Source: Minisyncoccota bacterium (lineage in GTDB: Bacteria > Patescibacteriota > Minisyncoccia > Phycocordibacterales > CSBR16-119). Taken from it: 39,712 nt of DNA. The notes below the pieces were generated by a model that worked only from the letters and a program-made list of their open reading frames with translations, searched no databases and was not told the DNA's origin. The DNA is taken from positions 1 through 39,712 of the forward strand of contig JAWKSM010000004.1 of the NCBI GenBank assembly GCA_041389065.1, given 5' to 3'. Below, piece by piece: positions 36,702-38,885 of this stretch. Position 1 is the first letter of the stretch. Each line of letters opens with the position of its first letter. The position numbers were made by a program, and so were the translations under genes.

Positions 36702-36738
36702 AAAAACAAGGACCAGAACCCTGCAGGTTCTGGTCCTT
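36701..36738 (-). terminator. Intrinsic terminator oriented for the minus strand
   Basis: 13-bp stem aaggaccagaacc / ggttctggtcctt. The T-tract (gtttttt) is present only on the minus-strand side. Confidence 0.8.
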
Positions 36739-36758
36739 CGCCAAGCATCAAGCTTGGG

Positions 36759-36941
36759 CTACACCAGCGGTGTGATGAATGCATGGCCAACGGGGCCCAG
36801 GATGCGCGTCTCAACGTATCTGCCATTCGGCCTGAACTTGTTCTGTGCCTGCTGTGTGGCCATATTTCCTGGTTGTTTCAGGATCTTCACCACATTCACT
36901 TTTCCTGGGGTGATACGCTTACGACGCTTCTGCTCTGCCAT
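36759..36941 (-). CDS. GC-rich 60-aa basic ORF of unknown family (or the body of a small RNA)
   Basis: Only sensible ORF in a unit bounded by a near-consensus promoter and a terminator. G/C-ending codons are atypical for this genome. No Shine-Dalgarno sequence. Confidence 0.35.
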   Translation of the reverse strand: MAEQKRRKRITPGKVNVVKILKQPGNMATQQAQNKFRPNGRYVETRILGPVGHAFITPLV

Positions 36942-36981
36942 GGTGCTTTGGGGTTTGGTTGGTGAACTATTTACTTCCTAC

Positions 36982-37009
36982 ATTATACACAAATAAACTA
37001 TTTTGTCAA
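36982..37009 (-). promoter_or_regulatory. Near-consensus sigma-70 promoter (TTGACA-16-TGtTATAAT) on the minus strand
   Basis: Minus strand reads TTGACAaaatagtttatttgTGTATAAT. The -35 shares the palindromic ttgtcaa with a plus-strand TTGTCA. Confidence 0.6.
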
Positions 37010-37039: not shown

Positions 37040-37351
37040 ATGAAAAATATATCACCACAATTAAAAAGTTTTTTGCACGCTGGGGCAGTTTTTCTGTATG
37101 TTCTTGGTGTTGCGATCCTTCTTTCAAAAGGAGAAAATATTTTTGGAGCGGAAGATACTTTATACATACCAATTTTTATGATTTTGCTTTTTGTTGTTTC
37201 GGCAACAACTGTCGGAGGGCTTGTTCTTGGTCGTCCGATACTTATGTACTGGGATGGAAAGAAAAAAGAAGCTCTTAAGTTTCTTTTAATGACGGTCGGA
37301 TGGCTTGCACTTTTCGCAATAATTATTATTTTTATTCAAATTTTAAAATAG
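37040..37351 (+). CDS. Hypothetical 3-TM membrane protein
   Basis: 103-aa hydrophobic ORF. TGcTATAAT at 37025-37033 lies only 6 nt before the ATG, so the mRNA may be leaderless. Confidence 0.6.
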   Translation: MKNISPQLKSFLHAGAVFLYVLGVAILLSKGENIFGAEDTLYIPIFMILLFVVSATTVGGLVLGRPILMYWDGKKKEALKFLLMTVGWLALFAIIIIFIQILK

Positions 37352-37354
37352 TTT

Positions 37355-37762
37355 ATGTCAAACAGAATTGTACACTTTGAAATACACGCAGATGATTTGT
37401 CTCGAGCAAAAGATTTTTACACAAAAACTTTTGGCTGGGAATTTGAAGAATGGAAAGGGGGAGAAAAAGAATATTGGATGATTATGACTGCGCCGAAAGA
37501 TTCTAAAGAGCTTGGGATAAACGGAGGAATGTTGAAGCGTCCTGAAGGTTGCCGGCCTGTCGAAAAAGGTCAAGCGGTGACAGGTTTCGCTTGTACGGTT
37601 GTTGTCGAAAATTATGACGAGACTGCAAAAAAGATTTTAGAAAATGGCGGAATAGAGGCGATGCCAAAATTTGATTTAGCTGGAATGGCTTGGCAAGGAT
37701 ATTTTCTAGATACTGAAAAAAACATTTTTGGAATTCATGAGGTAAGAGGAGAGATGAAATAA
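37355..37762 (+). CDS. VOC-family (glyoxalase/bleomycin-resistance fold) protein
   Basis: IVHFEIHADDLSRAKDFY...FGWEF ... G..a...D.e.N.FGIHE is the typical VOC pattern. Confidence 0.85.
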   Translation: MSNRIVHFEIHADDLSRAKDFYTKTFGWEFEEWKGGEKEYWMIMTAPKDSKELGINGGMLKRPEGCRPVEKGQAVTGFACTVVVENYDETAKKILENGGIEAMPKFDLAGMAWQGYFLDTEKNIFGIHEVRGEMK

Positions 37763-38107
37763 AATTCAAGAGCCGGGCCATGTGGCCCGGCTCTTGTTAT
37801 CTGCTGTGTTTTAGGATGCCAACAGATGCCTTGGCTCGTTCGTCGGTCTTCTGGCTCGTGTTACCGAACCTTATCCGCGGCCAAAACATCATCATTGTGT
37901 TGCATTGGGCTGTCGGGTGTTCCAATCTAAGTGGGTCCGATATGCCTTTCCCGCGCAGTTGCGCCACAGCTAACTAACAACAAGTCAAAGAACGGGTGTG
38001 CCATTTTGTTCATTATTTCAGAGAAACTTAACGCGTCAGGTGTTCCGATTAGCCAAGGCGTGGGGGCATTGTGCTAAACTGCGTCGATCTCTGAATTTAG
38101 AACAGCC
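37757..38107 (-). ncRNA. Candidate about 350-nt non-coding RNA of unknown family
   Basis: GC-rich segment with no ORF over 30 codons on the minus strand. It is bounded by a TTGACA-17-TAATAT promoter (38114-38142) and the terminator at 37767-37796. Contains internal hairpins and the repeated motif GG(A/C)ACACC(U/C)G. Confidence 0.4.
37767..37796. terminator. Strong hairpin terminator usable from both strands
   Basis: caagagccgggcc-atgt-ggcccggctcttg. The minus side continues aattttattt. Confidence 0.8.
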
Positions 38108-38113
38108 TTTCAA

Positions 38114-38142
38114 ATATTATTTGAAGACTTAATTTTTGTCAA
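38114..38142 (-). promoter_or_regulatory. Near-consensus sigma-70 promoter (TTGACA-17-TAATAT) on the minus strand
   Basis: Minus strand reads TTGACAaaaattaagtcttcaaaTAATAT, directly downstream of the preceding gene's terminator. Confidence 0.6.
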
Positions 38143-38147
38143 TAAAA

Positions 38148-38189
38148 ATGAAGAAGCCCCGACCGTGCGGTCGGGGCTTCGGTCTTCAT
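38148..38189 (-). terminator. Intrinsic terminator of the DUF3050-like gene
   Basis: 12-bp stem gaagccccgacc / ggtcggggcttc. The minus side continues ttcattttt. Confidence 0.8.
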
Positions 38190-38198
38190 GTGTTTGCA

Positions 38199-38798
38199 TT
38201 ACTCGATGGGGATGAGTCCCTTCGCATACAGATCGAGGCGTGCAGCGTAGAAACGATCAAGCACTTCAGAGTTAAGTTCGTGGGCTTGCGTGAGCTCGGC
38301 GTGTCCACCCTCTTCGGAGTCGAGACGGATGTGCTCTTCCAAGTAGTATCGATAGAATCCGAGATGATACCCCTCCCAGTTTTGAGAGTCCAAGATCTTC
38401 TTGAAGATGCCGGGTAGTTCCTGCTCTCGGGAGAAAATCGTCATTGCGCGCTCCTTGTCTGTCATCGAGCGGACTGCATCAAGGTATTCCTCCGTCACAT
38501 GAGATGATCGACGTATGAACTCGCTTGCTTCGTGAGGGAAGCGAACCGTGAAATGGCTCAAGAATTGCCAATGATCACCGAGCTGTTTGTAGTTTCCATA
38601 CGTCAGGTTGGTGGTCCCGAGTACCCCTGCCGCCATGAGCTTGAGGTTCTTGTCGTCGGGGAAGACCTCGAGCGCCAGGCGGAGCGACTCAGCGAACTCT
38701 CGCGCGGTTGCGAGGCTTATCATGACGATGCTGTAAGGAGAGTAGTCTCCCCATGGAAGTTCCAGGATCTGTCGGACTTTTTCTTGGTAGGGTTGCAT
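38199..38798 (-). CDS. Heme-oxygenase-like fold protein related to DUF3050; GC-rich, likely horizontally acquired
   Basis: C-terminal FSREQELPGIF...FYRYYLEEHIRLDSEEGGHAEL resembles the DUF3050 F.RE..iPgmF...YYLeRHIe.Dgd.H motif. The GC shift begins exactly at the ATG at 38798; the track start at 38864 lies in AT-rich DNA. Confidence 0.6.
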   Translation of the reverse strand: MQPYQEKVRQILELPWGDYSPYSIVMISLATAREFAESLRLALEVFPDDKNLKLMAAGVLGTTNLTYGNYKQLGDHWQFLSHFTVRFPHEASEFIRRSSHVTEEYLDAVRSMTDKERAMTIFSREQELPGIFKKILDSQNWEGYHLGFYRYYLEEHIRLDSEEGGHAELTQAHELNSEVLDRFYAARLDLYAKGLIPIE

Positions 38799-38817
38799 AG
38801 GAACGGTTTTGTTTTTA

Positions 38818-38845
38818 ATTTTACATAAAAATAATTTTTTGTCAA
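38818..38845 (-). promoter_or_regulatory. Sigma-70-like promoter (TTGACA-16-TAAAAT) for the DUF3050-like gene
   Basis: Minus strand reads TTGACAaaaaattatttttatgTAAAAT. The surrounding ttttgtcaataaaa module is shared with the promoter at 38133-38146. Confidence 0.5.
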
Positions 38846-38885
38846 TAAAATTGTTTTTAATCAAAAATCTTGTTATATTTCACTC

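Follow-up and report, generated by a model that had tools for sequence, protein, structure and literature searches.

An ORF-free presence/absence cassette in a Patescibacteria genome that most likely encodes an abundant small RNA

Can a stretch of fewer than 400 nucleotides that brings its own promoter and its own terminator, and no recognizable protein gene in between, be a gene for an RNA, and if so, for what kind of RNA? This question is raised by one locus on the minus strand of the window analysed here, i.e., the complete contig C4 (39,712 nucleotides) of genome G000, which comprises 526 kb and is 76% complete. The genome belongs to the CPR/Patescibacteria, whose genomes are tiny and contain very little non-coding DNA; to our knowledge, almost nothing is known about regulatory RNAs in this group. 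An earlier note, made from the letters of the sequence, had proposed a structured RNA of about 350 nt at this position. According to our analysis, the locus is probably a real, functional and lineage-restricted small RNA gene in a hot spot of swappable cassettes, and its 383-base unit most likely makes an abundant small RNA, for which we infer strand, ends and fold from the sequence.

Layout and transcription signals of the unit

The unit and the signals bordering it are listed in Table 1. Both elements which had initially drawn attention to the locus were located, namely the TTGACA-17-TAATAT promoter at 38142..38114 of the minus strand, directly after the terminator of the upstream gene, and the strong terminator hairpin at 37767-37796 with its U-rich tract, for which a stem of 13-14 bp was recovered. 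The description as a GC-rich unit in an AT-rich genome likewise agrees with our values, which are 0.45-0.52 for the element (about 50% for its body) in comparison to 0.363 for the genome.

Table 1. Features of the RNA unit and its upstream border, with positions referring to the window.
Feature	Position	Strand	Description
Whole presence/absence unit	37758..38140	-	383 nt, between 7-nt direct repeats TTTTATT (38147-38141 and 37764-37758, minus-strand reading)
Outer sigma-70-type promoter	38114..38142	-	TTGACA-17-TAATAT; predicted signals
5' domain	38006..38107	-	Nested outer helices around a variable apical part (predicted fold)
Inner promoter-like site	38012..38039	-	CTGACG-16-AATAAT, extended -10 (TG upstream); 9/12 matches
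U-rich linker	37972..38005	-	Mostly unpaired in predicted folds; 5' end of the abundant RNA species (RNA contig end at 38000)
3' core domain	37803..37971	-	Closing helix GCUGUG/CACAGC (predicted fold)
Intrinsic terminator	37757..37796	-	13-14-bp GC-rich stem, then U tract; hairpin 37796..37767, then AATTTTATTT
Terminator of the upstream DUF3050-like cassette	38153..38180	-	Outside the RNA unit; hairpin just 5' of the outer promoter

The outer promoter shows the TTGACAAAAA-type architecture also found in other promoters of the G000 genome, and its -35 hexamer spans the junction of the cassette. In G007, the sister genome that holds the only homologue (see below), three substitutions fall into the block 38108-38149, none of them touching either promoter hexamer, and the inner promoter-like site carries no change. 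At the opposite end of the unit, the intrinsic terminator is probably bidirectional, since the stop codon of the glyoxalase-family gene, which runs convergently, overlaps with it.

Regarding promoters in general, TTTTATTGACAAAAA(A)TTA is common to those of the RNA unit (38114-38145) and of the DUF3050-like cassette (38818-38848), both on the minus strand, and strong promoters throughout the G000 genome follow a TTGACAAAA...TG-n-TATAAT pattern.

Distribution of the unit and its place in a cassette hot spot

BLASTN revealed a single homologue of the element in the congener G007, which shares about 92% genome identity with G000 and whose copy is 94% identical. The BLASTN search covered about 440 relatives (40 relatives together with 400 genomes of the order), with G007 as the only carrier, and the element is absent from six of the seven other genomes of the genus. 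Seven further matches at E 0.004-0.01 span 21-38 nt each and were dismissed as chance matches. Beyond G007, exact 20-26-mers of the element were found in none of the metagenome, genome and viral collections, and BLASTN against phages and plasmids gave no match. Nothing real was obtained by nhmmer against 160 loci holding relatives of the two flanking genes, nor did a covariance model built on the 3' core yield more when run on these 160 loci, on 20 genomes of the family and on 150 of the order; its 22-bit match in G159 falls within an ORF of 478 aa and was put down to chance. The BLASTN and nhmmer checks that the earlier note had proposed hence recovered G007 and nothing else. Equal word shares of 0.15 across many runs were also rejected as a sign of wider spread, the share of run X12 having come from the flanks and not from the element.

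It is this run, X12, which offers a view of the site in its empty state. A DNA contig of a close relative (43.8 kb) joins position 37757 to position 38141 and thereby skips exactly 383 nt, with seven letters at the junction (TTTTATT) that fit both sides and with flanks that diverge from those of the window by about 4 to 15%. The precise junction identifies the unit as a presence/absence polymorphism, and its precise absence from a close relative characterizes the RNA as accessory and not housekeeping. Both an insertion and a deletion via microhomology would fit the junction. In a fourth relative (run X19), a different sequence follows the glyoxalase-family gene. In G007, a gene for a Bax1-I-family membrane protein is situated upstream and replaces the DUF3050-like gene; G007 nevertheless has the same terminator hairpin, promoter and element. 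The upstream terminator hairpin (38180..38153) is kept in G000, in G007 behind this other gene and also in the X12 relative, where the site is empty. The element is one cassette in a flexible hot spot of swappable cassettes, each of which is individually promoted and terminated.

The precise presence/absence and the 7-nt direct repeats at the junction could also point to a small mobile or recombination-borne non-coding insert of the MITE type, which spreads as DNA and is transcribed only incidentally. A contig of 419 nt from run X14, whose kind is only guessed as DNA, would suit such an insert by covering almost exactly the unit with its flanks unassembled, although at a depth of 4 the missing flanks prove nothing. 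Against mobility, however, the genome contains a single copy without terminal inverted repeats, the same site is occupied in all genomes carrying the element, and no copy turned up in the phage, plasmid, viral, metagenome and other genome collections mentioned above. Moreover, the 7-nt repeat corresponds to the T-rich tails of two terminators, and a microhomology deletion explains the junction equally well. An origin from a MITE or an IS element was rejected for the missing inverted repeats, the single copy and the terminator nature of the repeat, and we consider a mobile insert of any such kind most unlikely.

The genes surrounding the element deserve some description on their own. The DUF3050-like gene (window 38199-38864, minus strand) and the Bax1-I-family gene of the sister genome (L003 746-1441) both lie between the ychF-side region and the same terminator hairpin, and in the X12 relative the DUF3050-like gene comprises two internal segments (38348-38477 and 38513-38598) that are equal in length to those of the window but strongly diverged, which marks it as a mosaic gene. 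Further along, a GC-rich cassette on the minus strand (36708-37009), present only in G000 and absent from G007, combines a perfect TTGACA-16-TATAAT promoter, an ORF of 60 aa (36941..36759) and a 14-bp terminator; its ORF has no Pfam match and is a singleton in a collection of 15 billion proteins. Between the two cassettes, a two-gene unit on the plus strand (37040-37762) encodes a 103-aa membrane protein and a 135-aa protein of the glyoxalase/bleomycin-resistance family, the latter being 100% identical in G007, present in only two of eight genomes of the genus and consequently itself accessory. As for the taxonomic setting, the nearest named relatives of YchF are found in MAGs of Nomurabacteria, Paceibacteria, Parcubacteria, Taylorbacteria and Kaiserbacteria, which conflicts with the NCBI label "uncultured Candidatus Saccharibacteria" (CAZOPP010000014.1 / L024 and many TPA MAGs); this label looks generic, and on the strength of the YchF relatives we refer to the organism as a Paceibacteria-like CPR bacterium.

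Expression, fold and coding potential

Expression is documented by one assembled contig from one run of one study: in the wastewater metatranscriptome X15, a contig of 214 nt matches 37787-38000 with 100% identity at a k-mer depth of 488, the contigs of this run showing neither strand nor true ends. The neighbouring 60-aa cassette is represented in X15 by a contig covering 36731-36957, also 100% identical, at a depth of 2.4, and the protein genes flanking the element have zero cover. This gradation (488 versus 2.4 versus 0) makes DNA carry-over unlikely. Each of the two RNA contigs stops within the 5' arm of its minus-strand terminator. While the 3' core (37803..37971) is fully covered by the RNA contig, the 5' domain (38006..38107) has no RNA contig in X15, and the contig of the element starts at 38000, i.e., 107 nt downstream of the start expected for the outer promoter and about 5 nt from that of the inner site. 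In run X14 of the same study, the presumed DNA contig passes 38000 unbroken. Together, these observations hint, if weakly, that the abundant species corresponds to the 3' part of about 245 nt, or about the 3' two-thirds, rather than to the full 350 nt. With regard to the structured RNA of about 350 nt in the earlier note, a self-contained, ORF-free unit that belongs to no known family and reaches a high depth in a metatranscriptome was thus borne out, but the abundant part extends over 37787-38000 only.

In the scenario we prefer, transcription would proceed on the minus strand and end at the intrinsic terminator (37796-37767), and the stable and abundant product would most likely be the 3' ~245 nt, in which a single-stranded, U-rich 5' end would be followed by a compact core of several helices (37971-37803) and by the terminator hairpin. 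This product could originate from the inner extended -10 site, whose sequence suggests a promoter with an RNA start near 38005. An alternative option could be the cleavage of a longer transcript which starts at the outer promoter near 38107. The RNA may then act in trans, in a protein-binding or regulatory capacity, rather than being a by-product. Taken as a whole, a stable, accessory and trans-acting ncRNA from a stand-alone gene that occupies a flexible hot spot in this small CPR genome is an interpretation to which we give roughly even chances. A seed-target search with the U-rich linker against 657 start regions yielded a best duplex of -29.2 kcal/mol, which lies within the range of shuffled seeds.

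When fold energies were compared with those of shuffled sequences, as the earlier note had suggested, the whole unit reached a z of -4.08, largely contributed by the terminator, and the undivided body only -1.72, but its two domains were moderately better than shuffles (z -3.3 and -2.9). The 5' domain has a minimum free energy of -29.1 kcal/mol and a z of -3.30 in G000 versus -2.02 in G007, the plus strand giving about -2.0 and -1.7, respectively. For the 3' core, the minus strand (z -2.94) clearly differs from the plus strand (z -1.03). The outer helices predicted for the 5' domain (UGUUC/GAACA, UUCAGAGA/UCUCUGAA and GACGC/GCGUU) are kept in G007 while the apex refolds, and the 3' core is predicted to comprise the GCGC-AACU-GCGC hairpin together with another, irregular arm and a long hairpin that is likewise irregular (about 49 pairs). 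Both pairings pointed out earlier, i.e., the GCGC-AACU-GCGC hairpin and the 8-bp UUCAGAGA/UCUCUGAA helix, therefore reappear in the predicted folds.

The notion of a structured RNA is consequently supported by two domains that beat their shuffles, but not by conserved structure: between two sequences of 94% identity, no pair of the body has changed on both sides. The only two-sided, compensatory event is the insertion of a paired A/U, which lengthens the terminator stem in G007, with the A entering the 5' arm and the T the 3' arm. All changes in the 3' core (substitutions and one 1-nt deletion) affect positions left unpaired by RNAalifold or maintain the pair, e.g., from G-U to A-U, which is a weak test given that the consensus was derived from the same two sequences.

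Regarding divergence, the body of the element differs by 5.8% between G000 and G007; nine of its 17 substitutions are crowded into 43 nt (38043-38085), and the remaining 243 nt (38042-37800) differ by 3.7%. For comparison, third codon positions differ by 15-25% in most genes and by 3% in a nearby membrane-protein gene, and stretches without long ORFs by 6-9%. Constraint on the element is likely in view of its lower divergence compared to third codon positions; judged from these sequences, a local history of recombination could mimic it.

The motif GG(A/C)ACACC(U/C)G, or GGMACACCYG, which the earlier note had seen three times, indeed has three copies in the element and none elsewhere in the window (3 observed versus 0.02 expected), and three of the six copies in the 526-kb genome are inside the element. 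Each copy is predicted to be capable of forming a 4-bp stem with an (A/C)ACAC loop. In the sister genome, all three are changed, so the motif shows no constraint, and we read the copies as traces of internal duplication and not as binding sites.

With respect to coding potential, the earlier note had described the unit as free of ORFs, with all three minus-strand frames full of stops. Two of these frames contain 10 and 8 stops, but the third has only 3 in 116 codons; this frame has no start codon. The longest ORFs measure 56 aa (minus strand) and 65 aa (plus strand), and both are disrupted by a 1-nt deletion at 37917 in G007, the sole homologue. Apart from one short frame considered below, no conserved ORF emerged, in keeping with the earlier statement. 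Pfam searches of all six frames, with X at stops, found no match in the element, phmmer with the best frame against 1.84 billion representative proteins (E<=0.001) returned 0 matches, and a collection of 15 billion catalogued proteins has no called gene at the element. The same Pfam (six frames) and phmmer (best frame) searches detected no homology to a decayed GC-rich protein gene, a point which had also been singled out for checking. The best frame has an even GC content by codon position (0.55/0.44/0.49), in contrast to the usual coding pattern of the neighbouring GC-rich coding cassettes (0.56/0.33/0.60 and 0.57/0.39/0.64). TAG is an ordinary stop codon in G000, and a read-through of the best frame at TAG is out, since this codon terminates 76 of 306 long ORFs.

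These data bear directly on the possibility that the locus is a transcribed remnant, i.e., a former protein-coding cassette with a decayed frame, whose promoter and terminator still work and whose RNA has no function. Such a remnant would account for a promoter-body-terminator layout and a raised GC content which the coding cassettes on either side also show, for a body of about 300 nt, which is the size of a small gene, and for the frame with three stops. This frame reads the repeated motif twice as I-G-T-P-D, and 9 of the 17 substitutions are synonymous in it, with a p of 0.019 that loses significance once all six frames are taken into account. The lack of conservation of the motif repeats, the restriction of the element to two genomes and its precise loss from a relative, if it was a loss, would fit as well. 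In fact, however, the best frame resembles nothing among 1.84 billion representative proteins, no frame has a Pfam match, and the GC3 excess of the neighbouring cassettes is missing. The stops are common to both genomes, which places any coding selection before their split, and yet third codon positions have diverged 3-5 times more than the body. Furthermore, an RNA depth about 200 times that of the neighbouring gene with its perfect promoter would be unusual for an untranslated junk transcript. A functionless remnant thus appears rather unlikely to us.

Another option is that the transcript serves as mRNA, or as dual-function RNA, for a micro-protein. The candidate is an ORF of 28 codons (38013..37927, minus strand), which is kept together with its ATG in G000 and G007 and in which three of four changes are synonymous third-position substitutions, an outcome with a chance probability of about 0.05. 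The absence of a ribosome-binding site is no argument against translation, since Shine-Dalgarno motifs are not used in this genome, and it was dropped as an argument against small ORFs in general. The abundant RNA contig, however, begins at 38000 and hence downstream of the ATG, and the ORF, which has neither a hydrophobic helix nor a homologue, spans only 87 of the approximately 300 conserved bases. We regard a micro-protein as very improbable. In G000 as a whole, GGAG, GAGG or AGGA precede 13 of 358 long ORFs, which is below the frequency in random 17-mers (7%), and gene leaders are A-rich.

Relation to known RNA families and systems

The earlier note had been unable to match the locus to RNase P, tmRNA, SRP, 6S or riboswitches, and the Rfam search it recommended led to the same result: no family reached its gathering score, and E<=10 produced only terminator-like noise. 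With Rfam 15, the window and a 701-nt region gave terminator-like partial matches far below threshold, and a literature search retrieved nothing specific to the element.

Several families were considered individually and rejected. RNase P RNA (RF00010/RF00011) had no model match in the 701-nt region even at E<=10 and none in the window; moreover, the element does not qualify as a single essential copy, given that G007 has it alongside a canonical RNase P RNA (C41:2051-2417, 102 bits), and three further congeners without the element carry RNase P RNA. For tmRNA (RF00023), ARAGORN and Rfam find none at the element, and the tmRNA of the genome is located at C1:1651-2032 (119.8 bits). A 6S RNA (RF00013) is at odds with the missing model match, the branched fold and the too narrow distribution, the missing match being of limited weight as the model is insensitive and detected 6S RNA in no more than 5 of 14 control genomes. 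For a sponge RNA of the CsrB/Rsm type, five GGA triplets were counted by eye in the body, which is approximately the number expected by chance, and the CsrA partner was found in none of G000, G007 and G004. An Hfq-dependent sRNA was discarded likewise, no Hfq having been found in G000, G007 or G004, the last of which is 97% complete.

Two observations on the genomes themselves arose from these searches. G000, at 76% completeness, yielded no RNase P RNA, although four congeners have one; the 6S model had no match in the genus genomes searched.

The closest parallels may be sought among the orphan ncRNA classes of bacteria, such as raiA, OLE, ROOL and GOLLD, which have their own promoter and terminator, are of unknown function and are all included in Rfam. 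Like these, the element is free of ORFs, GC-richer than its genome, stand-alone, apparently abundant and predicted to fold into multiple helices. Unlike these classes, with their wide conservation and covariation, it resides in two sister genomes and has no model match, and with about 245-340 nt it is also smaller.

In trans-acting sRNAs of the enterobacterial type, a structured body is preceded by a single-stranded 5' region and followed by a Rho-independent terminator. The 3' species of the element would resemble them in its unpaired U-rich 5' end, its folded core and its terminator hairpin with U tail, but the element is longer than most of them, no Hfq was found, and no target rose above shuffled controls. 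CsrB/RsmZ, CrcZ and 6S RNA, on the other hand, sequester proteins by means of repeated hairpin motifs. Here, the apparently high abundance and three short motif copies able to form hairpins are reminiscent of such RNAs, whereas the alteration of all motif copies in G007, the lack of a CsrA gene and of a 6S-model match, and a fold other than a rod with bubble set the element apart.

The element is an unclassified, probable small RNA gene. What makes it noteworthy is that a cassette of a flexible CPR hot spot would carry RNA only, and that the evidence of its expression is unusually direct, if thin. If a cassette without an ORF is kept, strongly transcribed and gained or lost among near-identical strains, the flexible gene pool of the CPR would include RNA genes besides protein genes. 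In practical terms, the unit is a concrete and short RNA target in wastewater enrichments, the value of a single lineage-restricted orphan being modest. Going further, the unit could represent a new RNA class, i.e., a highly expressed and strain-variable RNA-only cassette with an accessory function, exchanged in the same manner as the protein cassettes of the hot spot; this broader proposal is unlikely as it stands. If true, the cassette could serve, e.g., in phage defence or interference or in host interaction in these host-dependent CPR strains. The comparison with replacement-type flexible islands and single-gene cassettes is instructive in this context: as in these systems, the contents of one and the same site vary between close relatives (G007, the X12 relative and G000), but unlike other single-gene cassettes, the one described here makes do without a protein gene.
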